From an uncultured bacterium (GTDB taxonomy: Bacteria > UBP15 > UBA6099): a stretch of DNA of 64,000 bases. Numbering within the stretch: the first letter of the stretch is position 1; each line of letters starts with the position of its first letter. A program made the translations under genes and the position numbers. Shown in pieces: positions 8,672 to 57,586 of the stretch. The notes beneath the pieces are model-generated. The model saw only the letters and a list, made by a program, of their open reading frames with translations, had not been told where the DNA came from and did no database searches. The stretch spans positions 2,355 to 66,354 of the forward strand of contig CAYPEK010000008.1 in assembly GCA_964409645.1 (NCBI GenBank), read 5' to 3'.

Positions 8672-11600
8672 TCAATCGCTACAGGTTTTCGTCGAGCAGC
8701 AGGCGGGAATGGGCGCTTTGCTCGAACAGAGCACCGCGCTGCTGACGTCGTAAACGCTGTCGATTTTGGAACCGTAGGAATCCTTCATGGCAAGTATGTC
8801 CGTCAGGTTGATGGTGCCGTCGTTATTGAAGTCCGCCCAAGCGCGGTAGCATGTTTCGCCGGATTTCGCGCCGTAGGCGTTTTTGATCGCCATAATGTCC
8901 TGAAGGTTGACTGAGCTGTCGCAGTTCGGGTTACCTGCGTCGCCGCCGCCGTTTCCTGAGGCACCCGGCAGATCGAGCACGTTCACAGTGATTGAATTGG
9001 CGGTGGACGGAAGGGTGACTGCCTTTTTGAGAGTAACGTAGCAGTAATCGGTCGTTTTGGATGTGCAAGCGACCGGACTCGAACTCACCGGCATTCTGAG
9101 TCTCACAGTGTAAGTGACGCTCGAAGCTCCGATGGGCGCTTTCATGTCCGGTGGTTTGCCGACGTTGTCGGTACTGACTGTCGAAATAACCGTGTCTGGT
9201 GAAGATGTCTGAACCAACTCGATCCTTGTGTCGGTAAGAGCGGTGTATGTATAAGTTGCTTTGGTCTTCATGCAGTCGGTAGTCGAAGCGCATTGCGGAT
9301 CGGCAATCGAGTAGTATCTGATTTCGCCGTTCGTGCCTTTCCCATTCACTTTGACGGTGTTCGGACAGTCGGTGCAGGTGTTCGGTTTGATGTGAATTTT
9401 GCCGCCGGTGGATGAGGGCAGGGTGGAAACTGTTTTAGCCGATTCGCCGGATGTGGCGTTCGCATACGAAACCCACACGTAATAATCGCTTTCGTTGATC
9501 GAAAGGGACGCGAGGTCCGTTCCTGTTTTTATATAGTCCGTGCCGGCCTGCTGTATGACGGATGTGTTGATTTTTTTGAACGTGTCGGTGCATGAAGCTT
9601 CGACGTTGTATTTACAGAGGTAGAGATTGTAGCCTTCGCCGGAGTCATACGCGCTGTCGTCATCGGCCGATGCTACCCAGTTGACTTTCAGGCCGTACTG
9701 GGAGTCGTATTCGTAGGCGGAGACGGCGCCGGGGGATTTGAGTGTCGGCCCTTCCGAACAGGTGAAGCAGTTGGCGAGGTCGGACGCGTTGTATTTATCG
9801 CTGATGTTTCCGGCGAGGTCTTTTGCGGTTATGCAGTAAGAATATTTTTTGGACGAAGTGGTTTCCACTTGGTCCGTGTATTCGGTGTCGATGAGCTCGG
9901 CTGCGTCGTCGAGCAATTCGAAATCGGATGCGGAATCACACTGCGACATGTCGCCCTCGCATCTGTAAACCGAATACGAAATTGTGTCTTTGTCGCTGAC
10001 GGCTGCCCATTTCACGATGTTTCCGCCCTCTTCGGAGCTATAGAAGGAGTTCTCCGTGTCCGCGACCGGTTTCGCTGGCGGCAGAGTGTCCGCCGGGACG
10101 CACTCGACCGGGTCGGGCGTGTCAGGATCGCGGGAGACATTGCCGGCGGCGTCGTATCCGTAAACGCGGTAGCAATATATGGTGCTGTTTGTCAAACTTG
10201 TGTCCGTATAATTAGGAGTTGTCATAGCGTTAAGAGTTGCAACGGGCGTTCCGCCGTCTTTGGGCGAAGTGATTGTCGTTTTCGAGCAGTCGTTGTTAAC
10301 AGCGGGGGCGCGCATGACGTAGTATCCCGATAATTTGAACGGGTCGGGATTGTTGCAGTCGGCGAAAGTTCCTTCGCTATCTTCTCCCGTGCAGATTTTG
10401 TTCCATTCGAGCTTGCACTTGTTGCCTTCAACCGGCGGGGTTGTCTTGATCTCTTTGCCGTCGGACTGGTTTTCGGGCCATCTGGGCGCAAGCGTGTCTG
10501 TGGGGATCATTATCGGGCCGCATTTCAGGTATGTGGTCATAGTGTCGAAATTGCTGCAATTCGGTGAGGTTTTTCCCGGGCACGTGCCGACAGTTGTGCA
10601 GTTGTCGCATGCCTCGACGTAGAGGCACCAAATGTCGCCTTCGTTTTTGAAGCCGGATGTGACAGAGCAGGAGAGAGTTTCCGGCGTGCTTGGGTCGTTC
10701 TTCGTGCAGAGGACGGCGTATCCGTTGGTTGTTGCTGTTTCTTCTTTTGTATCGCAGGAGCCGGGTTTCGCGAGATCGTCGAAACAGCCGTAGAGATTGT
10801 ACGTTGCGGCGTCGATGTCGGAGACAGGTTGCCAAGTAGCATTTATACCGAGTTGGGTCATGTTGTAAGTAATGCTGAGAGTGTCGGGTTTGGAGGGCGA
10901 CTTGAGGTCCTGTGGCGTGCAGGATACGGTCGTCCAGCCCGATTCGTTGTTGCCGACATCGATGGCCTGAATCGAGTAGGAATAAGAGAAGCCGTTTGTG
11001 AGCGCGCTGTCGTTGTCGGTGAACTGTTCTCCGAGAATTATGGCGCCGTTGAGCTGTGAGTTGTCGCGCTTGATGTTGTAACCGTAGAGGCTGGGGTCGG
11101 ACGTGTCCGGAGACCAAGTGCAGAAGCATTTGCTTTCGCTGCCGTCGGGTGTGGAACAGGATGCGCCCGTCGGCGCGGCGGGCGGCATCCAGTCTTCCAC
11201 ACGGCACGGAGCCGTGGTTGCTGACCAGTCTTTCTGAGCGGTTTCGAGGCCGGTTTTGCCGACGCTCGAAAAGAAGAAGTAATGTTTGCTTCCGTCCAGC
11301 GATGCCTGAGGAACGGTGTAAGTGACGGAGTTCGAACTTGTGAGGTTGGTTGTGATGTCGAGATCGGAAAGATATACGGCGGTTGCGGCGTTGTTGGTCG
11401 TGTTGTGATAGACCTTGTATTTCGATACTGAGCTTGCGTCCGGCGATGAGTAGATGTCGATGATGCACTGATTGTTGTCCGGGATGGCGGAGCTCTTGAC
11501 GCACTCGGGCGCATCGCCTGTGCCGTTTGCTTTGCACGTTGTGCTTTTGAACAGCGGCGCCGCAGGGACGGTTACTTCATCGACAACTTTGGCTTCTTTC

Positions 11601-37216: not shown

Positions 37217-38512
37217 TTGAGTTTAGTAACAAATGTCAACTCGATGGGCGCGATAAATTTCGCGAGAGTAAACAACAATTTCATGAGCACGGGTTCGGAG
37301 AGGCTGTCCTCGGGACTTCGGATAAACAGCGCGGTGGACGACCCGTCCGGTCTGGCGATAACCGTGTCGATGAAGTCGCGGAGCGGCGGCGATAAGGTGG
37401 CGAACGAGAACGCTCAGGAGGCCATAAACTACCTTCAGGTGCGTGATTCGGCGATGTCCGAGATCGGCGACATGCTTCAGCGGATACGCGACCTCGCTGT
37501 GCGGGCGGCGAACGACGCCACGCTCACATCCGACGATATGCAAAGAATACAAGACGAAGCGGTACAAATAGGCAAAAACATAGACGTAATAAATTCCGAA
37601 ACGAAGTTCAACGGCAAAAGAGTTTTCAATCACAGTCTCGAAATGGTACAGGGATGGGCCGGGCCGTACGGTCTGCCGGGGCACCCCGGACAGGTCAGTT
37701 TCACGCTGGACCTTGCCTCGCTCGCGGCGGCTAACGGCGGAGTAGCTGTAGTCACCAGTGCGTGGTATAACGGAGATAACGATTTTCCGGACCTGAACAT
37801 TATATCACCGTCGGGAGAGGCCTTCGGATACTACCACGACACATACACGGGTATGTACGAGGCATATCTGGGCGGCGGCGGAGCGCAGACAATAGATTCC
37901 TCGGTAATTGATAGCGCGGACCAGATAAACTACAACGGATGGGGTCCGGCGGCCTCGCCGGGCGGCTGGTTTGAAGAGTTTTTCGAGGTGACTAATCCGG
38001 AAGCGGGCCTGTGGACGATTCTTATAGACAATGAATCTCCGTCGGACAGATATTTTGGGATGTATTATAACGGCGAGACGGTCGAAGATCCGACCGTGTA
38101 CGATTCCGCACAGATCGGGCCCGATAATTTAGACTGCTGCGTGGTTCACCTCGACATGTTTCAGGTATCGAGCGTGACGCTTGGAGTATCGACGAGCATG
38201 TCCACCGCAACCGCGGCGGCGGCGGCGATAGACTCGGCGGATGCCGCGATAGACAAACTGAACAATTACCGCGCGAAGACCGGCACTCTGATCAACCAGA
38301 TCGAATACATCATAAACGACAACACAGCGCAGATCATCAATATAGAGGCGAGCAGATCGCGGATCGAAGATTCCGAGATGGCGAGCGAAATAACGAAATA
38401 CACTAAGACCCAGATAATCCAGCAGACGAACACGCAGGCGCTGAACAAATCCGACAGGATGTCGGAGAGCGTCCTGAATCTGATAGAGATGTCCACAGGC
38501 GGCGCGGCGTAA
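37217..38512 (+). CDS. fliC: Flagellin with an inserted non-flagellin central domain
   Basis: ERLSSGLRINSAVDDPSGLAI, LQRIRDLAVRAAN and TKFNGK at the N-terminus; QIGPDN and SRSRIEDSEMASE at the C-terminus; TTG start. Confidence 0.9.
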   Translation: MSLVTNVNSMGAINFARVNNNFMSTGSERLSSGLRINSAVDDPSGLAITVSMKSRSGGDKVANENAQEAINYLQVRDSAMSEIGDMLQRIRDLAVRAANDATLTSDDMQRIQDEAVQIGKNIDVINSETKFNGKRVFNHSLEMVQGWAGPYGLPGHPGQVSFTLDLASLAAANGGVAVVTSAWYNGDNDFPDLNIISPSGEAFGYYHDTYTGMYEAYLGGGGAQTIDSSVIDSADQINYNGWGPAASPGGWFEEFFEVTNPEAGLWTILIDNESPSDRYFGMYYNGETVEDPTVYDSAQIGPDNLDCCVVHLDMFQVSSVTLGVSTSMSTATAAAAAIDSADAAIDKLNNYRAKTGTLINQIEYIINDNTAQIINIEASRSRIEDSEMASEITKYTKTQIIQQTNTQALNKSDRMSESVLNLIEMSTGGAA

Positions 38513-38582: not shown

Positions 38583-40835
38583 TTATTTCCCGCCGGATGA
38601 GCTCAGTGCGACGTATTTTTTATAGGCGCTGAGCGCTTCGTCTTTCTTGCCGAGTTTTTCGTAGCACTCGGCGAGCGCTTTGTATCCCTGAGCATATTTC
38701 GGGTTGAGCGCGACGGCTTTTTTGAAGTCGTTGACGGCGTTCTTGCAGTCGCCTTTTCCGGCGGTGAGGCGGCCGCGAGCCATGTAGGCGGCCTCGTTCT
38801 TTGGGTTGAGCTGGATGGCCTTCGCGATGTCTTTGGCGGCTTGCGCGGCGTCTCCTTTTTTGCGATGCACTTCGGAGAGGGCGACGTAGGCGTCGATGTA
38901 GTCCGGCTTCAGTTCGATTGCTTTGCTGAGGCTTTTTGCCGCGCTGCCGAAGTCCTCGCGTTTCGAGTACGCGACGCCGCGGAAGTAGTAAGCGTCGGCG
39001 TTGTTCGGGTCGCCTTGGACTGCGGTGTCGAGGTCGATGATTGCTTTGTCGAAGTCGCCTTTTTCGAAATGTGCGCGTCCGCGGTAGGTGTAATTGTCGT
39101 AGTTTTCGGGTTTAAGCTCGATTGCCTTGTCGAGGTTTTCAATCGCCTTGTCGAAGTCGCCTTTTTCGAGTTGGATACGCCCGATGTAGTGGAACGGGGT
39201 ATCGGTGTCGGGGTTGTCTTCCGCGGATTTCTGGAAAGATGACATGGCGCCGTCGTAGTCTTTGTTTTTGAATTTGCAGATGCCGATGCTGTCGTAGAAA
39301 GGTTTTGTCGTCGGGTCGAGGCTTTGGACAACGGTGTAGTCCGCTTCGGCGGCGGCGCAGTCGCCTTTTCCGGCGAGGATGGTTGCGCGTGTGATGTAAG
39401 CGATATGGTCGGTGGTGCCGGCGCTGATGGCTTTGTTGAGGTCTTCGAGTGCTTTATCGGTGTCGCCGGTTGCCATGAGCACTGCCGCGCGGGCGGCGGT
39501 GGCTTCGGGGTAGTCCGGTCTGAGTTCAATCGCCTTGTCGTAGTCGGCGAGTGCTTTGTCGTACATGTACCTGAGGAAGTAGTTATTGCCTCGGTCATAG
39601 TAGAGGTAACTGTCGTTGGGGCTGAGCTCGATCGCTTTGTCGAAGTCGGCGGCGGCGGTTTCGAAATCGCCTTTGACTTTGTATGCGAGCCCGCGATAGT
39701 TGTATGTCATGCTCGAGGTCTGATCCATCTCGATGGCTTTATTCAGGTCTTCGATGGCTTTGTCGGTTTCGTTCGAATAGAGGTATGCGTTGCCGCGCAG
39801 AGAATATGCGAGCGCGATGTTGATGCCCAAGTCTATCGCCTGAGTGAGGTCGGCGATGGTGTTGGGGTAGTCGTTTTTCATGCTGTAGATGCTGCCGCGG
39901 CCGAGGTAATCCATGGCTGTGCCGGAGCCGAGGTCGATCACTTTCGTATAGTCGGCGATGGCGCCGTCGTAGTCCATCTTCAGCAGCCGGATTCCGGCGC
40001 GGTCTTCGAGTGCGGGGGTGTACGTTGAGTCGGTTTCTATTGCCTTGTCGAGGTCGGCGAGTTCGTTTGCGTAGTCGCCTTTGTATTTATAGATGCCCGC
40101 CCGGTAGTAGTAATACCTTGCGGTGTACGGGCTGAGGCTGATGGCGGAGGAGTAGTCGGCGAGCGCGTTGTCGTAGTCGCCTTTTGTCGAATAAGAGATT
40201 GCTCGAAGGATATAAACCGTGGCGTCGCTTTTCAGGCTGAGCGCGTAGGTGAAATCGGATATCGCGCTGTCGTCGTCGCCTTTGTAGGCGTAGCAGTTAC
40301 CGCGGTTGATGTATGCGTCGGGGTAGTAGGGCTTCAGGCTGATGGCCTGAGTAAAGTCCGAGATGGCGGCGTCGTAACTCTTCATGTTCATTTCGGAGTT
40401 GCCGCGATTGTAGTAGGTGTCCGCGTTTCCCGGTTCGTATGTGATCGCTCTGGAAAAATAATCTATGGACTGAACGTAGTCGCCTTTTTTGTTGTATGAG
40501 TAACCGAGCCCGAACAGGGCGGACGAGTTGGCGGAGTTGTACGAGAGCGCGGTGTTGAAATCGGAGATGGCGGAATCGTAGTAGTCCATGCGGTTGTAAG
40601 CGAGGCCGCGGTTGGAGTACATGAAAGAGATGTTTTCGTAGGTTTCGCCGGATGAGTAGCTTGTGATCGCCTGAGTGTAGAGGTCGGCGGAGTCCGAGAA
40701 TCGGCCTTCGGTGTAGGCGGTCATGCCGAGGTCGAAGCAGTTTTGTGAGCTGTAGCAGTACTCCGCGAGCGCTGCCCGGCCGGCCGCGAGCGAAATCGCG
40801 ATAGCGAATATTGAGAGTATTTTTCGAAGTTTCAT
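38583..40835 (-). CDS. Exported all-TPR protein (750 aa, about 20 repeats)
   Basis: Signal peptide followed by continuous 34-aa Y..RG..Y...GDYD.AI.D...AI.L.P repeats. Confidence 0.92.
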   Translation of the reverse strand: MKLRKILSIFAIAISLAAGRAALAEYCYSSQNCFDLGMTAYTEGRFSDSADLYTQAITSYSSGETYENISFMYSNRGLAYNRMDYYDSAISDFNTALSYNSANSSALFGLGYSYNKKGDYVQSIDYFSRAITYEPGNADTYYNRGNSEMNMKSYDAAISDFTQAISLKPYYPDAYINRGNCYAYKGDDDSAISDFTYALSLKSDATVYILRAISYSTKGDYDNALADYSSAISLSPYTARYYYYRAGIYKYKGDYANELADLDKAIETDSTYTPALEDRAGIRLLKMDYDGAIADYTKVIDLGSGTAMDYLGRGSIYSMKNDYPNTIADLTQAIDLGINIALAYSLRGNAYLYSNETDKAIEDLNKAIEMDQTSSMTYNYRGLAYKVKGDFETAAADFDKAIELSPNDSYLYYDRGNNYFLRYMYDKALADYDKAIELRPDYPEATAARAAVLMATGDTDKALEDLNKAISAGTTDHIAYITRATILAGKGDCAAAEADYTVVQSLDPTTKPFYDSIGICKFKNKDYDGAMSSFQKSAEDNPDTDTPFHYIGRIQLEKGDFDKAIENLDKAIELKPENYDNYTYRGRAHFEKGDFDKAIIDLDTAVQGDPNNADAYYFRGVAYSKREDFGSAAKSLSKAIELKPDYIDAYVALSEVHRKKGDAAQAAKDIAKAIQLNPKNEAAYMARGRLTAGKGDCKNAVNDFKKAVALNPKYAQGYKALAECYEKLGKKDEALSAYKKYVALSSSGGK

Positions 40836-41735: not shown

Positions 41736-42503
41736 TTATGCTGCGAGTTCATTTCTTATGTCTTCTCTATGACTCCATTGGATAGGTTTAATGTTGTAGC
41801 TTTTGAGCGCGGCAATAACATCTGTTGGGACGCTTTTTTCTGAGTCATTTAAAATCGCGTATGCCATAGAGTCATCCGGTCTGACTTCTTTTGTGTCAAA
41901 CCATGCCCACATGAATGTCTGTGCCATCTCACGACTTGGCCTGTTGATTGCCCTAATGATTCGTTCAGGTTGTTTATTTGGAGTTTTAGGAATTACAAAA
42001 TCAAATAGATGATCATAACCTGTCTTGCCTGTGAATTTCGCTTTTGGTGTGAATCTAATTTCGTGAGTGTTTAACCAAGCCTCAACGTCTTCATAAAATA
42101 ATCTTTTAATAACAGGTTCAGCAAGATAAAACATATCATTAACTGCCAATATGGCTTGGATAAGATTATGTTTTCTAAGGGCGAAGTTATCTGAGGAAGC
42201 TTGAACTTGGAGTGCATTTCTATCATTTTGGACGCCGAAGCCATTCAAAGTTACTTTAAGAAGCTGTTGTCTTTTGGGGCTGTCGAGTTTGCATCCGGAA
42301 TGTAAAAGGTCCGTAATTGTGTATCCATCATCTGTTAATATGAATCCTCCATTTTGTTTATGCGCATAAATTTGTATATAGTCATTATGCCTATCTAAAT
42401 AAGGCGTTGTTATTTCTATCCAATCTTGAACTTCTCTTAAAGAAGTCTTATCTCGGAGCCACTCTATATACTGATCAAGAAGATGTCGAATTTCGTCTAT
42501 CAT
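41736..42503 (-). CDS. DUF1828 + DUF1829 domain protein (C-terminal restriction-endonuclease-like region)
   Basis: [17 protein letters not shown]...LTDDGYT (DUF1828-like); [15 protein letters not shown] (DUF1829-like); ATGA overlap with the upstream gene; AT-rich coding sequence. Confidence 0.8.
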
Positions 42504-42949
42504 GAAAAAAGGCCTCTTTGGATTCTTGGCTGAATTGTTATATTGCAAAAATCCATGAATTGATAAAGTGTTTTTTGTATATCATCCATGTCCGTAAACT
42601 TATCAACGGGAATGGGGTTTGCCCATTTATCTCCAAATCCTTCTCGGTAAATATGGATGTGTGGCACGCTTATTTCTCTGCCATCCGGATTTCTGTGTGG
42701 AGGTCCGCCAAGGTCTAATCTAACAAGCGAAACCACTTGGCGTGCTCTGTTTTGATAAGATACTTTTTGTAAATCAATGCGGCTCCGACCGATATCCAAT
42801 ATAAAATACTCTCTCTTGTCTGTAGATATAAGAGGAACAGATAGAGATTCACCGGGAACAGGAAAAGAATAATTATTATTATCAATACGGTGCTTCTCCA
42901 TAGCAATGAGCATTTCGGCTTCTGCTTGATTAAGATTAACTTCGGTCAC
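42500..42949 (-). CDS. DUF6978-like protein with a His-rich motif
   Basis: [16 protein letters not shown]...[15 protein letters not shown] motif; GTG start; translationally coupled to the DUF1828/1829 gene. Confidence 0.7.
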
Positions 42950-43144
42950 AATAGTTACACTCCGAGATTGCTATAAAGTTATAGGTGTTAGCAAAAACCA
43001 CATAATCAATCCAACTCTATATTACTTTATTATAACATCCCATAATCATCAATTGCTTATTCTGTCATAAATCATGTCCATCCTAAATTGACAATGCAGA
43101 TCATTAAATGCTACTCAAATGTTCATATAATGATGACCAAATAT

Positions 43145-43175
43145 AAAAGGGCGGGTTTTGAGGCCCGCCCTTTTT
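43145..43175. terminator. Bidirectional terminator (duplicate of 44561-44591)
   Basis: AAAAGGGCGGG-ttttgagg-CCCGCCCTTTT. Confidence 0.85.
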
Positions 43176-43196
43176 ATTGTTGCTTTTGCGCTAATC

Positions 43197-43274
43197 TTAT
43201 CTGCCGAAGATTCCGATGCTGCAAACGCTCATGGCGGGGAAGCCGCCGAGGTTGTGCGCCAGCGCGAGGTTGTC
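43197..43274 (-). pseudogene. Detached 3' end (about 25 codons) of a thiolase gene
   Basis: Encodes DNLALAHNLGGFPAMSVCSIGIFGR*, against DKLALTHNLGGFPAMSVCSIGIFGR* in the intact thiolase ending at 44614. Confidence 0.85.
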
Positions 43275-43439
43275 TTGGGCACACGGCTTTTCCGTTTTGC
43301 AGTTCAAACACGCGCTTGATATAATTGATAAATGGCAAGGCCATTCGGGGTGGGGAATGAAATCAATGGACAAATCGCAAAGCACTATACCCGACTCGGA
43401 ACTTCCCGACATGTTAAGATCATCCTGCGAGGACAAAAT

Positions 43440-44540
43440 ATGATAGCTGCGCAGCTTGTGCCTAAGCGGACATTCGGTAATACCGGCGTGAAGATATCTA
43501 AGCTCTGTCTTGGCGGCGGGTCTTTCGGGAACTCCGACGGTCAGGCTTTGCTCGATGAAGCTCTGAAGTATGGCGTGGATTGCTGGGAGGTCGTATCGTT
43601 TACCGGAAAAGTATATGGCGAATATTTCAAAAAACATTCCGATATGCGTGAGAAGATATTTTTGACGGGGAAAGTGCATTTTACGGATCCGGCTGCGATG
43701 GAGAAGCAACTGGATGATATGCTCGTTGAAAACGAAACATCTGTTATCGACTTTCTCGCTGTGCATGTGCTGGACAATACCGAGGTGCTTACAAACGATA
43801 TTCGGAAATGGGTGGAGAAGCTGAAAAAGGAAAAGAAAATTCGTTTTTTCGGGTTCTGTACCCACAAAAATATGGACAGATGCCTTTCCAACGCCGCCGA
43901 TCTTGGTTGGATAGACGGTGTTCATACTGTTTATAGTTACAGGATGCAATGTGTCAAAAGTATGGAAGACGCTTTTCATAAATGTTACGAAAAAGGTGTC
44001 GGGATATTCGCTGTTAAGTCGATGGGGCTGACCGTTCTGAGGAAAACGGAACGGCAACCTGATGAAGAGAAATTAGATGCGGCTTTATCCGGCCACAATA
44101 TAACATTTGAGCAGGCGAAGCTGATGTCGATCTGGCAAAATCCCGCTTTGACATCGATCTGCTCTCTCATGTCGAGCCCGGAGATCGTTCAATCCAATGC
44201 CTCGGCGGCGGTGAATGAGGCTGCGCTCGATGCGGAGGTTCAAAAACTGCTTTCGGATTATGCCGACAGCACTTCAAAGTATTTCTGCCGTCGCTGCGAT
44301 CAGTGCGAAGCGGCAAATGCTGATAAAGTTCCTATCTTTGATATTATGGAATTGCTTATGTATTCAAGAGGATATGCTCGAATGGAAATGATCGCAAAAA
44401 AGTTCATGCAGATACCTGTTGAGGTCAGAAACAGGATGAGTCACAGCGATTATTCGGTTGCTGAAAAGATGTGCCCGCAGAAAATGCCTATAGGGCAGCT
44501 AATGAAGGAAGCCTGTGATGAGTTCACCACCCATTCGTGA
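43440..44540 (+). CDS. Aldo/keto reductase with C-terminal Fe-S-type Cys motifs
   Basis: PKRTFGNTGVKISKLCLG, KIRFFGFCTH and IFAVKSM motifs; FCRRCDQC and KMCPQKMPI. More AT-rich than the flanking genes. Confidence 0.88.
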   Translation: MIAAQLVPKRTFGNTGVKISKLCLGGGSFGNSDGQALLDEALKYGVDCWEVVSFTGKVYGEYFKKHSDMREKIFLTGKVHFTDPAAMEKQLDDMLVENETSVIDFLAVHVLDNTEVLTNDIRKWVEKLKKEKKIRFFGFCTHKNMDRCLSNAADLGWIDGVHTVYSYRMQCVKSMEDAFHKCYEKGVGIFAVKSMGLTVLRKTERQPDEEKLDAALSGHNITFEQAKLMSIWQNPALTSICSLMSSPEIVQSNASAAVNEAALDAEVQKLLSDYADSTSKYFCRRCDQCEAANADKVPIFDIMELLMYSRGYARMEMIAKKFMQIPVEVRNRMSHSDYSVAEKMCPQKMPIGQLMKEACDEFTTHS

Positions 44541-52095: not shown

Positions 52096-54603
52096 TTACT
52101 TTTTCGGTTTGATAGAGTCGAGTCGTTTTTGGGCGGCGAATATGCGCGCGAGCAGTGCGGGGTCGTCCGTGAACGTCGCCGCCTTGAATAGTTCGAGGCG
52201 GTATGAGTCGATTGTTTCTTTTTTGATATTTTTTCCCTTGATCTCGAACTCGACGGAGCGGACAAGTGCGCGGGAGTCGTAAGGATTTGACTTGAGATAA
52301 ATCGACGTCGCATTACTCACTTTGCGGCCGAAATCTTTCCGGTTTTCTGGGCAAGCGTCGATTTTTTCGAAGACGGTTCTCATGGTGGGAATGTCGTACG
52401 TTGCATAATCATCCGATTCTTCATCGTTGTAATCATACATCGAGTCTTCGTCTTCCGAATCGTCATCATCTCTCGGCTTGAGAATTCTGAGATAGTTGTC
52501 GCAGGCGGCGTTGGTGTCGCCTTTTTTCTCGAATGCTTTCGCGCGCAGTTCCGGGTCAATCGAGCTGCTTGAAAGCACCGAGTCGTAGTCGCCTGTGATA
52601 TAGGAAATATTGTTCTGGCTGCTGGATGTATCCACGTCGGTTCGGCTGCTCACGTAGTCGAGGATTTGGGAGGCTTCCTTGAATTTCCGGTAGTAGGCCT
52701 CCATGCCTATGTATTTGGATGTATCCATCCATTCCACGCCGGATACCGAGGCGGCTTTTTTGATTCGTGAGGCGGCTTCTTTCTCGATTGCCGGGACGTC
52801 ATACTTGGTGGCGAACGAGGGCCGCGAGTCGGGGAAGGCGCTGAAAAGCGACAGGGCGTAGGAGGGGTCTTCCGGTGCGAGGCGCGCCGCGCGTTCGAGG
52901 CGTTTCATCTGCTCTGGCGGGTTGCCCCCGTTGCGCGGTGAATACATCGCGTACGAGAGCATGTACTGGAACAGTCCGAGGCTGACGCGCTGAGCTTTCC
53001 TGCGCTCGGAGGCGCTCATGTAGGCTGCCTCGCGCCCTCGCGGCAGGATCACCGCCATCTGGTTGTCTCTCTTGCGCCACTCTTTTTCGAATATGCTCAC
53101 GGGGTGGTCCACCCAGACGTCATACGTCGCGACGTCGTAGGCAATGAGCGTGTCGAGGGCGCTGTCGTAACCGAAAATCACGAACACGTGTTGCGGAATG
53201 AAGACGAGTACGGGCACTTTCCGCCGGATGTAGTGTTTTATGTCGGAGACTTTCGCGTTTGTTCTGATGTAGAAATTGAGATCGTTGTTTTCGGCGTAGT
53301 AGAACATGTCGATCATGTCGGTGCCGAAGAATGTGTATGTGATGTTGGTGCCGATCTGCTTCGCGGTTGTGTGTTTGTTCCAATAGTTGAAGACGAGGGC
53401 GAGCGAGTTGGGGGCGCAGTAGGCGGACCGGTATTCGGTGCGCGCCTCGACAGAGGGAATGGTCACTCTTTTGCCCTTGCGCGAGTTGTCGCCGAGCCGG
53501 TCCATGAACAGCTTTGCATTGCGCGCGAATTCTTTGTTGGCGGTGTATTTCGTGAGCACGTTCTTGAACGCGGCTTCCGCGTCGTCGTCGTAGCCGATCT
53601 TGTGGAGCAGCAGGCCGATTCGGAACTGGAGGTATGATGCGCTGTAGCGGCTCGGATAGAGATTCAGGCTTTTTTCGTAGAGTAGGAGGGCGGGGCGGAT
53701 GTCCGCGCGGCGCTCGGCGGCTTTGCCGAGTATCAGGAAGTCGTAGCTGATGATGCCGGTGTAAACGACGGCGGTGAGCGCGAGCATGAGAGAGAGGTAG
53801 CCGACGAGCAACACTTTGCCGACGTAGGCGCGCAGTCCGGAGGCCGAGTACAGGATCAGCGCGCCGATCACCGAGAATATAGCGAAAATGAACGGGAACA
53901 GCGCTCCGGCGGCCGGGGCTGCGCTGTGCGGCGAAACTCCGTAAGACTGGAACGAGATCATGTCAACGAAGAACTGCCACATGAACATGAGGAAGGCTGA
54001 AGTGAGGATGAGGCCCGCCATCAGTTTGAACGGCATCTTCAGGTCTTCCTCGCGGATGAGGCCGCCCGCGATGCCGCCGATTACGGCGCCGACGAACGTC
54101 ATCGAAAGAATCATTATCATCATGAATTCGTCCGCGGAGAATGCGTGCGGGTTGATGGGGAGCAGCGTGCTGAGAACCGAGTCGGACAGGAGGTTGTAGA
54201 GGATGCCGAAGAGCGCGCCTGTCGGATATCCGAGAGCGAGCCCGGCAAGGACTCCGAAAATTATCCGCTTGATACCGCCCCTGAATTTGGGCTCGCCCGC
54301 GGCCTTGTTTTCTTCCTGCAGCCGCGCGAATCCTTTGTAAACGAACGCAAAGCAAAAAAGGCCGAAAAGCAAGTTAAAGCAGACGAAGATGAGGGCGATG
54401 TAATACCATCTGGTGTTGATGAACCAGACGGCGGCGGCCATGGCGATTATCAGCAGGGCCGACAGCGCGGCGAAGAAACCGCCCGCCTTCCGCCTTCCGA
54501 GCCGGTAGAGTGCAAGCGAACAAACCGCCGAGCCGCCGGGCGCGGAGAGGAAAAGCGATGCGATCAGAATCACCGCCGGATGCGGGACTGTGCTCCGTTT
54601 CAT
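52096..54603 (-). CDS. Multi-TM + TPR + C39-like cysteine peptidase (predicted active)
   Basis: About 7-8 N-terminal TM segments, then TPR; YCAPNSLALVFNYW (Cys 53416-53418), PQHVFVIFGYD (His 53188-53190), LIAYD (Asp 53134-53136); acidic patch and C-terminal TPR-like helices. Confidence 0.8.
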   Translation of the reverse strand: MKRSTVPHPAVILIASLFLSAPGGSAVCSLALYRLGRRKAGGFFAALSALLIIAMAAAVWFINTRWYYIALIFVCFNLLFGLFCFAFVYKGFARLQEENKAAGEPKFRGGIKRIIFGVLAGLALGYPTGALFGILYNLLSDSVLSTLLPINPHAFSADEFMMIMILSMTFVGAVIGGIAGGLIREEDLKMPFKLMAGLILTSAFLMFMWQFFVDMISFQSYGVSPHSAAPAAGALFPFIFAIFSVIGALILYSASGLRAYVGKVLLVGYLSLMLALTAVVYTGIISYDFLILGKAAERRADIRPALLLYEKSLNLYPSRYSASYLQFRIGLLLHKIGYDDDAEAAFKNVLTKYTANKEFARNAKLFMDRLGDNSRKGKRVTIPSVEARTEYRSAYCAPNSLALVFNYWNKHTTAKQIGTNITYTFFGTDMIDMFYYAENNDLNFYIRTNAKVSDIKHYIRRKVPVLVFIPQHVFVIFGYDSALDTLIAYDVATYDVWVDHPVSIFEKEWRKRDNQMAVILPRGREAAYMSASERRKAQRVSLGLFQYMLSYAMYSPRNGGNPPEQMKRLERAARLAPEDPSYALSLFSAFPDSRPSFATKYDVPAIEKEAASRIKKAASVSGVEWMDTSKYIGMEAYYRKFKEASQILDYVSSRTDVDTSSSQNNISYITGDYDSVLSSSSIDPELRAKAFEKKGDTNAACDNYLRILKPRDDDDSEDEDSMYDYNDEESDDYATYDIPTMRTVFEKIDACPENRKDFGRKVSNATSIYLKSNPYDSRALVRSVEFEIKGKNIKKETIDSYRLELFKAATFTDDPALLARIFAAQKRLDSIKPKK

Positions 54604-57422
54604 TCCGCCCTCCGTTTGCCCGCCGTGCCGGTTTTGCGCATCAGCGACTCAGCTTCGCGCGCCACCGGGCCGTCGTAGTCGATTTTACGCGCCCACGTGA
54701 TCTGCCGCTCCGCGTCCTCGCGGCGGCCGAGTTTAAGGTCCGCCTTCGCCAGCCACAGATGGTATCTCGGATTCAGTCCGTAATATTCGATCGCGCGTTT
54801 GAAGTCGCGCGCCGCGGCTTTCGTGCGGCCTTTCGACATCTCGACGCGGCCTTTGGCGTAGTAATATTCGTCCGACGTTTTTGTACGGGTGAACACGCCT
54901 TTCGCCTCGGTGTATCCCCTCTCGGCGGCTTTGTAATCGCCGACCTCCGCCGCGCAGACGGCTTCCCGCAGCAGGTCCGCGTCCGGCACTTTACGGTCGA
55001 GTAGGCCGTGATCCGCGGAACCCGAGTTAAGTATGTGGTACTGCGTGAGCGAATTCATGAAATCTCCGGTGTTGAAGTAGTACGACGCGAGCCACTTCCT
55101 CGCCATTGTGTTTTCCGGTTCGAGATAGGCTATTTCCTTATACGCTTCGAGCAGCATTTTTCTGCCGGCCGCTGTTTTGTTGTAGATCGCGCCCGTGATT
55201 ATTTTGTAATGCGACGGGTCGAGCGATTTGCTTTTCAGCGCCGCCGCCAGCGCGTTCCTGTACGCCGCAGCTTTTTCCGCCGCGCCCGGCGACGCGAGGA
55301 AAAGGCTGTACTCGTCACGGCCGGAGTATCTGTCGATATCAGCCGCCCATCCGGCCGAAAATCTTTCCGTGTCTATCTTCGCAAGCGTTATTCCCGCCAT
55401 GTATCTTGCGTATCGGTTGGCGTACGTGCCGTCGGAGGCGAAGTAGTATCTGAGCGCCTGAACGTAATCGTCATAGTTAAAATAGTGGTCGCCGAGTGCG
55501 GACAGCGTGCGCGCCTTGGTTTCCGCGTCGATTTTCACAGGGTCCAGACCGAGCGAATCCAGTTTCGCATTGGCATCTTTTTCCGGAAGAATGATTAGCA
55601 GTTCGCGGCCGCCTCCGGCCCAGCGTTTGCCGAGTTCGCGGTATGTCATTTCGGATATGATCTCGCCGCGCAGTTCGTGCCGGCGCTTGTCAACGTCTTT
55701 CTTCAGCGCCGCAGCGCTCAACTCCTTATTCTGGTAAACAATATTTTTTATTTCACCCTCGGTTAGTGTCTTCTTGTCCTTTTTGCCTTCCCTGCTGAAG
55801 TTGTACAGGATGAACATGCCCCGCCGGTCGTCGTATCCGGCGACGTTCATGTATCTCACTTTTCCGGTTTCATTTCTGCGCGCGCTGTATGACGAATCGT
55901 ATTCGTCGTCGTCTTCATCATCGTAATTATCGTCATCCTCGTCGTCGTCGAACAGGCCTGCAGATGTTGTTTTCAGCGGGAGTTCCTTAAGGCCTATCGT
56001 GGCGGTTATGCCGGAGCTGATGAGCTTCTTCAGAAGCTTTTCGTTTCCGCTGGTTGCGACTACGCGGTAACCGAGGAATCCGATGTTGGCGGCGGCGGCG
56101 GCGCAGTTGTCGATCGACGCCAGATTTATCACGCGCTTTTCCTTCGAGAGCTTCAGCAGCCGCTGCTTGAGCGTTTTTTCGTCTGTTCCCTTCTCGATGT
56201 GTTGAACCGCCGTCACGAGGGAGAGCCAATTAGCGTTCAGGTAATCTTCCCTGAGAACGGGCAGCAGGTCTTTCGTGTATTCTGTTTTCCCTTTTCCGGT
56301 CCGCATCCTTGAAAGAATGTATCGCGCGTTCAGGACAGCTTCCCGCGTCCGGAGCGTGTATTTTGCGTCAGCGATGCGTGCGTAATCCTTTTCCGCGCCG
56401 TCGATGTCGCCCGTCCGGTAGCGTTGCGAAGCGCGCGCGGCGAGCACATCGAGCGATTCAGGCGAATCGGCGAATCGCTGAATTATCAGCGTGTTCCAGA
56501 ACGCCGCTTTGCGGAGCCCGGCCGTGTCGTCTTTCGCTCCGTATTTTTCCGCTTCGAGATTGCAGATCGGCAGGTAGTCCTGAGATATCAGAGTTACGTT
56601 CCAGAAGACGAGCAGACTCGGCGCCAGAACCAGCAGGAGACGCTTGAAGAAGCCTTTCACCGTCTCTTCGTTAGCCATGAAAAGCGCAAACACCGCGGCG
56701 GGTCCGGCGAGTAACGTAAGGCCGATAATGTCCGAGGCGATGTTCGAGCCGAAATCCACTGTCGAGAATTTCGCCAGCCACACGCCGATCGTTATCATCG
56801 CGGGTATGGCTGCCAGCGGGCTGAGGTATAAGTAATATATGTTGGTGATCCGCAGTGATCCTTTTTTACGGCTCCAGTACAACCCGACGATGAAGGCCGG
56901 GGCGAACGCCCACAGTCCTTGGAGGACGGCCGAGTACATCCCATTCATTTTCAGAACGGCTTCGAAATCGCGTGAGTAATAAGACGCGATCATAATCGGG
57001 ATCGTCTGGCAGTAGATCAGCAGTCCGATGAAGAAGGCGTCGAACAAGCTGTTTTTCCACGGCGCTTTTTCGGCGGCGGGAGTCCAGAAAACAAACCGGG
57101 GCTGCCCGCTGAGCACGCCCGACTGGATTTTGTGGATCAGCAGCCCGGCGGCGATGTTTGCCGCGATGTGAAATATGATCGCCCACCACATCGGAAGTGG
57201 CAGCAGAACATAGACAACCGTATAGAGCGCGAGGCCGATCAGCGACACGGCGAACGATAGCGCCGCGAGTCCTTTGCGCCGCGCCATGTAGAACAGCACA
57301 CCGCACACATACAGCGTCGCGCCGAACGACATCAGTACGGAAATAAACAGAACCTGCGCTAGCGTCAGCCTGTAGGATTTGCCGTAAGAAGCCGTTTCTG
57401 TGTCTGCAATCTGTCCGCTCAA
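54600..57422 (-). CDS. Multi-TM + TPR + degenerate C39-like domain (predicted inactive paralog)
   Basis: N-terminus alignable to 52096-54603; RYMNVAGYDDRRGMFILYN and KRWAGGGRELLIILP echo the C39 strands without the catalytic residues; Asp/Glu tract; C-terminal TPRs; TTG start; ATGA overlap. Confidence 0.75.
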   Translation of the reverse strand: MSGQIADTETASYGKSYRLTLAQVLFISVLMSFGATLYVCGVLFYMARRKGLAALSFAVSLIGLALYTVVYVLLPLPMWWAIIFHIAANIAAGLLIHKIQSGVLSGQPRFVFWTPAAEKAPWKNSLFDAFFIGLLIYCQTIPIMIASYYSRDFEAVLKMNGMYSAVLQGLWAFAPAFIVGLYWSRKKGSLRITNIYYLYLSPLAAIPAMITIGVWLAKFSTVDFGSNIASDIIGLTLLAGPAAVFALFMANEETVKGFFKRLLLVLAPSLLVFWNVTLISQDYLPICNLEAEKYGAKDDTAGLRKAAFWNTLIIQRFADSPESLDVLAARASQRYRTGDIDGAEKDYARIADAKYTLRTREAVLNARYILSRMRTGKGKTEYTKDLLPVLREDYLNANWLSLVTAVQHIEKGTDEKTLKQRLLKLSKEKRVINLASIDNCAAAAANIGFLGYRVVATSGNEKLLKKLISSGITATIGLKELPLKTTSAGLFDDDEDDDNYDDEDDDEYDSSYSARRNETGKVRYMNVAGYDDRRGMFILYNFSREGKKDKKTLTEGEIKNIVYQNKELSAAALKKDVDKRRHELRGEIISEMTYRELGKRWAGGGRELLIILPEKDANAKLDSLGLDPVKIDAETKARTLSALGDHYFNYDDYVQALRYYFASDGTYANRYARYMAGITLAKIDTERFSAGWAADIDRYSGRDEYSLFLASPGAAEKAAAYRNALAAALKSKSLDPSHYKIITGAIYNKTAAGRKMLLEAYKEIAYLEPENTMARKWLASYYFNTGDFMNSLTQYHILNSGSADHGLLDRKVPDADLLREAVCAAEVGDYKAAERGYTEAKGVFTRTKTSDEYYYAKGRVEMSKGRTKAAARDFKRAIEYYGLNPRYHLWLAKADLKLGRREDAERQITWARKIDYDGPVAREAESLMRKTGTAGKRRAE

Positions 57423-57586
57423 GTTGTTTTTCTCAAGGGCTCTCTATTTGAAAGATAATCAATTATATCCAATCGCCGGAGGGGTTGCAATTGAGCTAAA
57501 TCAAATTATTTCGCGTCCCGTGGGTCCGTCGGCTTATAATATAAGGATATAAAAACAGAGTGGCTGAGGAAATCAGGAGGCAGCGG

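Follow-up and report, generated by a model that had tools for sequence, protein, structure and literature searches.

Among the described systems that come closest to the gene pair reported here are the peptidase-containing ATP-binding cassette (ABC) transporters (PCAT exporters; PF03412 together with an ABC transporter), in which the C39 domain is cytoplasmic and lies ahead of the membrane domain. Members of the PA2778 family (NCBIfam NF033920) have a C39-like domain followed by tetratricopeptide repeats (TPRs) within ~255 profile positions, and in LbcA-CtpA of Pseudomonas aeruginosa and NlpI-Prc of Escherichia coli a periplasmic protease receives its envelope substrates from a TPR module. We report that a 64,000-nucleotide stretch of DNA (the window) from an uncultured bacterium (GTDB lineage UBP15; UBA6099; assembly GCA_964409645.1, contig CAYPEK010000008.1, positions 2,355 to 66,354) carries two overlapping genes for large membrane proteins of 835 and 940 amino acids, A835 and B940, which share one architecture and of which A835 has an intact, and B940 a dead, C39-like cysteine peptidase domain. 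Our overall reading is that they make up a heteromeric cysteine peptidase that faces the periplasm and in which one paralog is a non-catalytic partner; its probability is in our estimate roughly 0.55, and the heteromer and the substrate are the parts that we infer.

The family to which A835 can be assigned is Peptidase_C39_2 (PF13529): it scores above the cut-off, and in its model the Cys begins a helix, with the His and Asp on neighbouring strands. It differs from that family in that the domain lies between TPR modules, is fused to an unclassified eight-helix domain and always has a dead paralog alongside. With the PCAT exporters the pair shares a C39-type peptidase on a polytopic membrane protein as well as a weak structural match (see below), but here the membrane domain comes first and is followed by the peptidase, which is predicted to face outward. 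For the PA2778 family only partial matches were obtained (A835 residues 393-599 and the TPR tail of B940; 27.1 and 16.8 bits, respectively, compared with a cut-off of 150), and that family has neither the eight-helix domain nor a dead paralog. The likeness to LbcA-CtpA and NlpI-Prc is one of analogy only: there a protease of the serine type (S41) works with a separate lipoprotein adaptor to which it is not related, whereas in A835/B940 the enzyme carries the TPRs in its own chain and has its own paralog for a partner. Taken by themselves the C39-like peptidase and the TPR are known domains; their combination with an eight-helix domain and an active/dead pair was not found in the literature or family libraries searched. 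Public records name the relatives "hypothetical protein" or "C39 family peptidase", and the literature searched held no description of the active/dead gene pair, in agreement with an earlier note, made by a model from the DNA letters, that recognised no described system here.

The two genes and the signals associated with them are:

54600-57422, minus strand: B940, 940 aa, polytopic membrane protein, catalytically dead paralog; upstream gene, TTG start
52096-54603, minus strand: A835, 835 aa, polytopic membrane protein with an intact C39-like cysteine peptidase domain; downstream gene, ATG start
54600-54613, minus strand: candidate coupling signals, GGAGG (54613-54609), a 5-nt spacer and ATGA (54603-54600)
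57462-57490, minus strand: sigma-70-like promoter candidate, TTGCAA-17-TATAAT, 10/12 matches, ~40 nt upstream of the B940 start

Both open reading frames (ORFs) are where the earlier note had placed them and their ATGA overlap was verified, with the ATG of A835 at 54603-54601 and the TGA of B940 at 54602-54600, as was the GGAGG 5 nt upstream. A start/stop overlap with a GGAGG just before the second start is the classic layout for translational coupling, and a four-base overlap of the B and A genes is present in 16 of 52 related loci; judged from these features B940-A835 is a conserved, translationally coupled two-gene operon. The TTG start of B940 is backed by the closest homolog (L001), which aligns from residue 1, and the start is identical in the gene called for the strain variant P0101. 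The promoter candidate is a consensus match only, and such sites are no commoner in the region than expected from shuffled sequence. Since the flanking genes are unrelated to the pair and on the other strand (an aldo-keto reductase with an Fe-S domain on one side; a PIG-L deacetylase, a GH31 glycosidase and a sodium:solute symporter on the other), B940-A835 constitutes its own two-gene unit.

Relatives of A835 are rare, 99 among 1.84 billion cluster representatives, and ~50 of these are full-length (760-870 aa). Searching genome and metagenome contigs with the single A835 sequence gave nothing, so a family alignment was needed, and the homolog search with the B940 protein sequence returned B940 alone. 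One genome per GTDB species was scanned with the A-family alignment, resulting in 63 loci, mostly from Desulfobacterota and Fibrobacterota (including Chitinispirillaceae and Chitinivibrionales), with others from Acidobacteriota, Planctomycetia, Binatia, Vulcanimicrobiota and unclassified metagenome-assembled genomes (MAGs). Save for a few MAG labels that are probably mistaken, the loci come from diderm phyla, and cultured carriers include Desulfogranum japonicum DSM 18378 and Desulfopila sp. IMCC35008. A B-type gene (840-930 aa, multiple predicted membrane segments) lies directly upstream of, and on the same strand as, the A-type gene in ~55 of the 63 loci, covering at least five phyla, and in nearly all loci lacking a B match the contig stops short of where the upstream gene would lie. 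When all flanking ORFs of at least 90 aa were clustered, only the A (59 loci) and B (55 loci) families crossed phyla; no third gene family shared across phyla was found among these ORFs in the 63 loci, and the next clusters reflect synteny specific to Fibrobacteria. Moreover, pairwise identities within the A and B families correlate with r = 0.98 in a mirror-tree comparison of 47 loci. The two-gene arrangement, whose conservation the earlier note had left to be searched for, is thus kept across phyla and inherited together.

Some features of individual loci were recorded along the way. In Fibrobacteria (L024, L031, L036 and others; e.g. L024:1020-16542) mnmG and the gene for a divergent sugar-transferase/polysaccharide-deacetylase fusion lie near the pair, and a conserved 231-aa protein without Pfam match is encoded directly downstream of the A-type gene, followed by an ABC-2 transporter (ATPase and permease). 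MnmG, the sugar transferase/deacetylase and the ABC-2 transporter were rejected as parts of the system, being lineage-specific and not present in the other phyla. Long upstream ORFs in the Acidobacteriota and Binatia loci were likewise not accepted as belonging to the N-terminus of B; nothing in them matches Pfam, and they are probably frames extended too far in DNA of high GC content. The MAG labels of L025, L032, L037 and L041 look wrong, likely due to mis-binning or chimeric contigs: the tail of L025, labelled "Solirubrobacteraceae", is almost the same as in L005 (Syntrophobacteraceae), and L032, labelled "Bifidobacteriales", has its upstream mnmG in common with the Fibrobacteria loci, while L037 and L041 ("Bifidobacteriales") are grouped with L032 only through their label and a similar match pattern.

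Pairwise BLASTP gave no significant similarity between A835 and B940 (best E 0.24). Family alignments were therefore not compared by single sequences but as profiles, built from the A-type ORFs and the upstream ORFs of the related loci, and with hhalign the two families matched at 99.9% (E 2e-33) over 742 colinear columns. Because transmembrane segments and TPRs can inflate whole-length scores, hhalign was repeated for each domain with all cross-combinations as controls, with the following outcome:

Membrane domain against membrane domain: 98%, E 3e-13
First TPR module against first TPR module: 94%, E 1.5e-07
C39 domain against C39 domain: 98.1%, E 1.3e-13, 133 columns
Tail against tail: 80%, E 1.4e-05
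Off-diagonal controls other than TPR: about 0%, not significant

Off-diagonal signal was confined to cross-matches between TPRs. By these profile comparisons A835 and B940 are full-length ancient paralogs of one architecture, i.e. an eight-helix membrane domain, a TPR module, a C39-like domain and a helical-repeat tail. The earlier note had proposed this shared architecture from the letters, and each domain indeed matches its counterpart; its alignments of the N-termini and of the W....ILP strand were both reproduced by the profile alignment, and its ~8 membrane helices per protein agree with the hydrophobicity of both proteins (~8 hydrophobic helices in the first ~285 residues) and with the eight helices in the AlphaFold2 model of A835. 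The Asp/Glu tract that it listed as a further common element has to be dropped: the tracts are at non-homologous positions, inside the C39-like domain in B940 and in the tail in A835, and comparable ones were detected in just 1 of 49 B-type and 3 of 61 A-type relatives, although the strain variant L064 has both.

For A835, the active member, the parts of the protein are encoded as follows:

53758-54603, minus strand: membrane domain, residues 1-282, eight transmembrane helices
53479-53751, minus strand: first TPR module, residues 285-375, from PDB sequence search and AlphaFold2 model
53029-53469, minus strand: Peptidase_C39_2 domain, residues 379-525, from the Pfam match
53416-53418, 53188-53190 and 53134-53136, minus strand: codons for the predicted catalytic residues Cys396, His472 and Asp490
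53164-53166, minus strand: codon for Asp480, which is invariant too
52099-53028, minus strand: helical-repeat tail, residues 526-835, from the AlphaFold2 model
52411-52470, minus strand: disordered, Asp/Glu-rich acidic tract in the tail, residues 712-731

A835 matches Peptidase_C39_2 (residues 392-490) with 30 bits compared with a gathering cut-off of 24 (E 8.9e-07), as do 32 of 38 relatives, while for Peptidase_C39 proper (PF03412) it stays below the cut-off (12.4 versus 22 bits, E 0.14) and just 3 of the 38 match at E < 0.01. Cys396, His472, Asp480 and Asp490 are invariant in all 61 A-type sequences from genomes and also in the 38-sequence alignment, which bears out the intact Cys-His-Asp triad claimed in the earlier note. 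An AlphaFold2 model built with the 38-sequence family alignment (predicted local distance difference test, pLDDT, 89.6; predicted template modelling score 0.81) has eight long membrane helices (9-282), the TPR module (285-371), the alpha/beta domain and the helical-repeat tail (531-829) in this order, and the tail is interrupted by the disordered acidic stretch; from the single sequence, with no alignment, pLDDT was 42 and the model not usable. In the former model Cys396 is at the N-terminal end of helix 396-407, His472 opens strand 472-480 and Asp490 comes just past strand 485-489, which is a papain-like arrangement, with the Cys at a helix N-terminus and His/Asp by strands. As judged from residue conservation and model, A835 is a competent Cys-His-Asp peptidase.

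The corresponding parts of B940 are:

56577-57422, minus strand: membrane domain, residues 1-282, ~8 transmembrane helices
56283-56552, minus strand: first TPR-like module, residues 291-380, from hhalign to its A835 counterpart
55563-56282, minus strand: degenerate C39-like domain, residues 381-620, from hhalign to the A-family C39 segment
55896-55955, minus strand: acidic low-complexity insert, residues 490-509, just before the former His strand; lineage-specific
54603-55562, minus strand: TPR/helical-repeat tail, residues 621-940, with sub-cut-off Pfam TPR_16/TPR_19 matches at 855-908

In the profile alignment the catalytic Cys396, His472 and Asp490 of A835 correspond to Leu395, Arg523 and Asn541 in B940 (codon positions verified). 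Arg and Asn are thus as given in the earlier note; its Ala at the Cys position is not, the manual alignment having been two residues off. The B940 domain has two inserts of ~40 residues each. Among 49 B-type sequences the Cys position is Leu in 42, Met in five, Thr in one, Phe in one and Cys in none; the His position holds a mix of Ser, His, Thr and Arg, and the Asp position a mix of Asp, Ser, Ala and Asn, while Trp399 never varies and the B-type proteins keep GYD and the last W....ILP strand. Pfam C39 models do not match B940 even at E ≤ 1, only TPR models do, and likewise none of 28 B-type relatives matches a C39 model and 22 of them match TPR models; the kinship of B940 to Peptidase_C39_2 is visible only via the A-family profile. 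By the papain-like triad, B940 is not catalytically competent, and the residue counts indicate that the B-type nucleophile was lost before the known lineages diverged and that the gene has since been retained under selection. The active/dead pattern suggested in the earlier note, with the catalytic residues present in 61 of 61 A-type sequences and no Cys at the nucleophile position in any of 49 B-type sequences, is by these counts family-wide and ancient, not an accident of one genome.

Selection was assessed by comparison with the strain variant L064 (~94-96% protein identity), recovered from a public read-set assembly. The ratio of non-synonymous to synonymous substitutions (dN/dS) is 0.09 for A835, 0.23 for B940 and 0.08 for the B940 membrane domain; both genes are under purifying selection, and B940 is maintained, not decaying. 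Lost catalytic residues, low-complexity inserts and the lack of a peptidase model match are what a decaying duplicate would also have, a pseudogene in the making whose resemblance to A835 is a leftover without function. The B940 frame is, however, intact over 940 codons, the dN/dS values are low, and orthologs in 49 loci across phyla share the Leu substitution and the invariant Trp399; the chance of decay is virtually nil, and the family residue counts together with dN/dS refute it in practice. In L064 two extra genes are situated at 8737-11243, between the A-type gene and the aldo-keto reductase gene, encoding a 293-aa coiled-coil protein and a 539-aa protein, both with hydrophobic, signal-like N-termini and no Pfam match. 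They were rejected as accessory components since relatives are present in no other locus nor in the window.

That A835 and B940 form a heteromer is, given the strict pairing, the coupling, the co-evolution, the absence of a third partner and the constrained B membrane domain, the most economical reading. Overall the interpretation in the earlier note is supported in part; its heteromer, in which the dead copy would bind substrate or regulate the active one, is proposed on the strength of coupling, co-occurrence, co-evolution and analogy. A useful parallel is the trypanosomatid S-adenosylmethionine decarboxylase (AdoMetDC) and its prozyme, an enzyme/pseudoenzyme paralog pair (PMC5201418). There, as here, a dead paralog is kept under selection beside the active enzyme, which by analogy makes activation or regulation within a heterodimer a reasonable model, although AdoMetDC/prozyme has another fold, occurs in other organisms and is soluble with no membrane domain.

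The two proteins could instead be co-transcribed but separate in function, with A835 a self-sufficient membrane peptidase, B940 a TPR scaffold or sensor of unrelated, non-peptidase use, and each of them homo-oligomeric. Such a division of labour would fit the faster divergence of B (mean pairwise identity 22% compared with 31% for A in the 47 loci; dN/dS 0.23 and 0.09), and the two large inserts in the former peptidase domain of B940 would suit a changed role; the A835-B940 interaction is, moreover, deduced and not observed. On the other hand, adjacency, order and strand are strictly kept across phyla with frequent four-base overlaps, no locus with enough upstream DNA is without a B-type gene (the doubtful L025 aside), no third conserved partner is present and constraint on the membrane domain is equally strong in B and in A. 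We consider separate functions rather unlikely. As to the suggestion in the earlier note that the pair might be a receptor, our analysis provided no specific support.

The orientation of the pair in the membrane is predicted from the distribution of charges. In both families loops 1-2, 3-4, 5-6 and 7-8 have many Lys/Arg and few Asp/Glu, the reverse of the alternate loops; in the A family the former have 2.7, 3.7, 2.0 and 2.6 Lys/Arg compared with 0.4, 0.5 and 0.7 in the latter, and in A835 itself ~16 Lys/Arg counted from the sequence are on one side and 3 on the other. According to the positive-inside rule the Lys/Arg-rich loops are predicted to be cytoplasmic, which would place the soluble part (TPR, peptidase and tail) outside, i.e. 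in the periplasm in diderm phyla. The membrane domain itself has no Pfam match, a profile of the domain finds no sequence relative in the PDB, and Foldseek with the A835 model returned no informative match for it. Since eight plus eight helices far exceed what an anchor needs, it probably does more than anchor, e.g. sensing or conduction.

If correct, the outward topology separates the pair sharply from the PCAT exporters. A PCAT-like exporter that operates without an ATPase, in which the membrane domains form the conduit and a cytoplasmic C39 domain trims a leader peptide, might be entertained as the domain is C39-related, PCAT1 (8vp5_B) is among the Foldseek matches of the A835 model (rank 29, E 2.3e-3) and in Fibrobacteria loci an ABC-2 transporter is located ~1 kb downstream. 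Against this, PF03412 scores below its cut-off (as above), the domain order is reversed relative to PCAT and the charge rule puts the peptidase outside; ABC_tran and ABC_membrane match neither A835, B940 nor the flanking genes in the window; no conserved small gene family that could encode a double-glycine leader peptide accompanies the pair in the 63 loci (ORFs of at least 90 aa screened); and the ABC-2 genes are lineage-specific synteny. We regard this exporter as very improbable, and the statement in the earlier note that the locus is not a standard PCAT system holds.

PDB sequence searches with whole A835 and B940 gave TPR matches only, and Foldseek with the whole A835 model mainly returned TPR proteins, with LbcA (7rqf) matching the TPR part. 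The C39-domain profile had a sole sequence match in the PDB, the pseudomurein endoisopeptidase PeiR; the two line up at the catalytic Cys, but the match is not significant (E 0.085). Neither protein matched the PADLOC-DB models for anti-phage defence, and Pfam and NCBIfam scans of both revealed no sortase, exosortase or NlpC/P60 model.

These results also bear on the chemistry. Acyltransferases and cell-wall amidases belong, together with C39 and C39_2, to the papain-like clan, and A835 might accordingly be a papain-fold transferase or amidase (a transpeptidase/sorting enzyme or a peptidoglycan (iso)peptidase) with B940 as non-catalytic partner. Besides the make-up of the clan, the PeiR alignment at the catalytic Cys and the Glu that mostly occupies the oxyanion position (see below) lean this way, and a large membrane domain beside a Cys enzyme recalls, by analogy, the logic of exosortases. 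However, the PeiR match is not significant, the sortase, exosortase and NlpC/P60 models all failed to match, and no protein family with a common sorting signal is encoded nearby; we therefore think such an enzyme quite unlikely.

The mechanism that we propose for the heteromeric peptidase is as follows. A835 and B940 would assemble as an inner-membrane heteromer with their soluble parts toward the periplasm. B940 would be the non-catalytic subunit, its TPRs and remodelled former active-site groove recruiting or positioning the substrate; alternatively, it may keep A835 either active or inactive. The bond that A835 then cuts would be a peptide (or isopeptide) bond of an envelope protein or of a peptide-linked polymer. 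In this scheme the heteromer, the outward topology, peptidase rather than transferase chemistry and the envelope substrate are all deduced.

Several points weigh against it. The association of A835 with B940 is inferred from coupling, co-occurrence, co-evolution and analogy, the topology derives from a simple charge count, and the short basic N-terminus (MKR...) would have to cross the membrane unless helix 1 is re-entrant. Six residues ahead of the Cys, where the oxyanion Gln is canonical, 46 of 61 A-type relatives have Glu, so that A835 might have an atypical chemistry. The papain-like fold of B940 is deduced from profile homology only. In L025 the A-type gene has no B-type neighbour and is preceded by ftsW, albeit this copy is N-terminally truncated and the contig possibly chimeric. 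Finally, no substrate candidate emerged from the window flanks or the 63 loci, where the neighbourhoods vary between phyla and gave no functional clue.

A related observation concerns the tail of A-type relatives, mostly from Desulfobacterota. In 14 loci (L005, L006, L010, L011, L013-L020, L023 and L025) an in-frame TGA interrupts the A-type ORF and is followed by 117-137 conserved in-frame residues (e.g. L011:10143-10205). The context of the TGA is conserved, ...VDGC[T/L]-TGA-HYRRxPVGP, and at the TGA position L004 and L012 have Cys (CIC and CTC, respectively). From 13 nt past the TGA a hairpin with a GGUC loop can be drawn, in which 6/7 pairs are kept via compensatory changes. The Desulfobacterota-type A relatives are probably selenoproteins with a CxU redox motif and a bacterial selenocysteine insertion sequence (SECIS) element; A835 of the window is without the CxU insert.

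A bolder version of our reading would be that diderm bacteria possess, in this pair, an envelope machine that has so far gone unrecognised. It would be a heterodimer of 16 helices and new membrane fold, linking an event in the membrane or cytoplasm (be it a signal, a lipid-linked intermediate or a substrate in transport) to regulated periplasmic proteolysis or transpeptidation, with the pseudo-peptidase as an obligatory allosteric or substrate-selecting partner; in Desulfobacterota a CxU redox switch with selenocysteine, carried on the active subunit's tail, would gate it as well. We put this forward tentatively, as possible but on balance doubtful.

Elsewhere in the window, GC content is 0.41 at 42001-44000 compared with ~0.56 in the remainder. 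This stretch coincides with a DUF1828/DUF1829 gene (41736-42548, minus strand), and together they may be a small acquired island. A flagellin gene (37217-38512, plus strand) adjoins a gene (38583-40835, minus strand) for a 750-aa protein consisting almost wholly of canonical TPR repeats, which cross-matches the hidden Markov models of both the A and B families via its TPRs only. At the window edge is an N6/N4 DNA methylase gene (PF01555; 62750-63814, plus strand).

To our knowledge few enzyme/pseudoenzyme pairs of the bacterial envelope are known, and this one has stayed together in Desulfobacterota, Fibrobacterota, Acidobacteriota, Planctomycetia and several candidate phyla, with cultured carriers that make it directly testable. 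Its membrane domain may represent a new fold family and the selenocysteine variants would, if confirmed, be a new selenoprotein family. Finally, the substrate of the pair could reveal a new step in the processing or turnover of envelope proteins.

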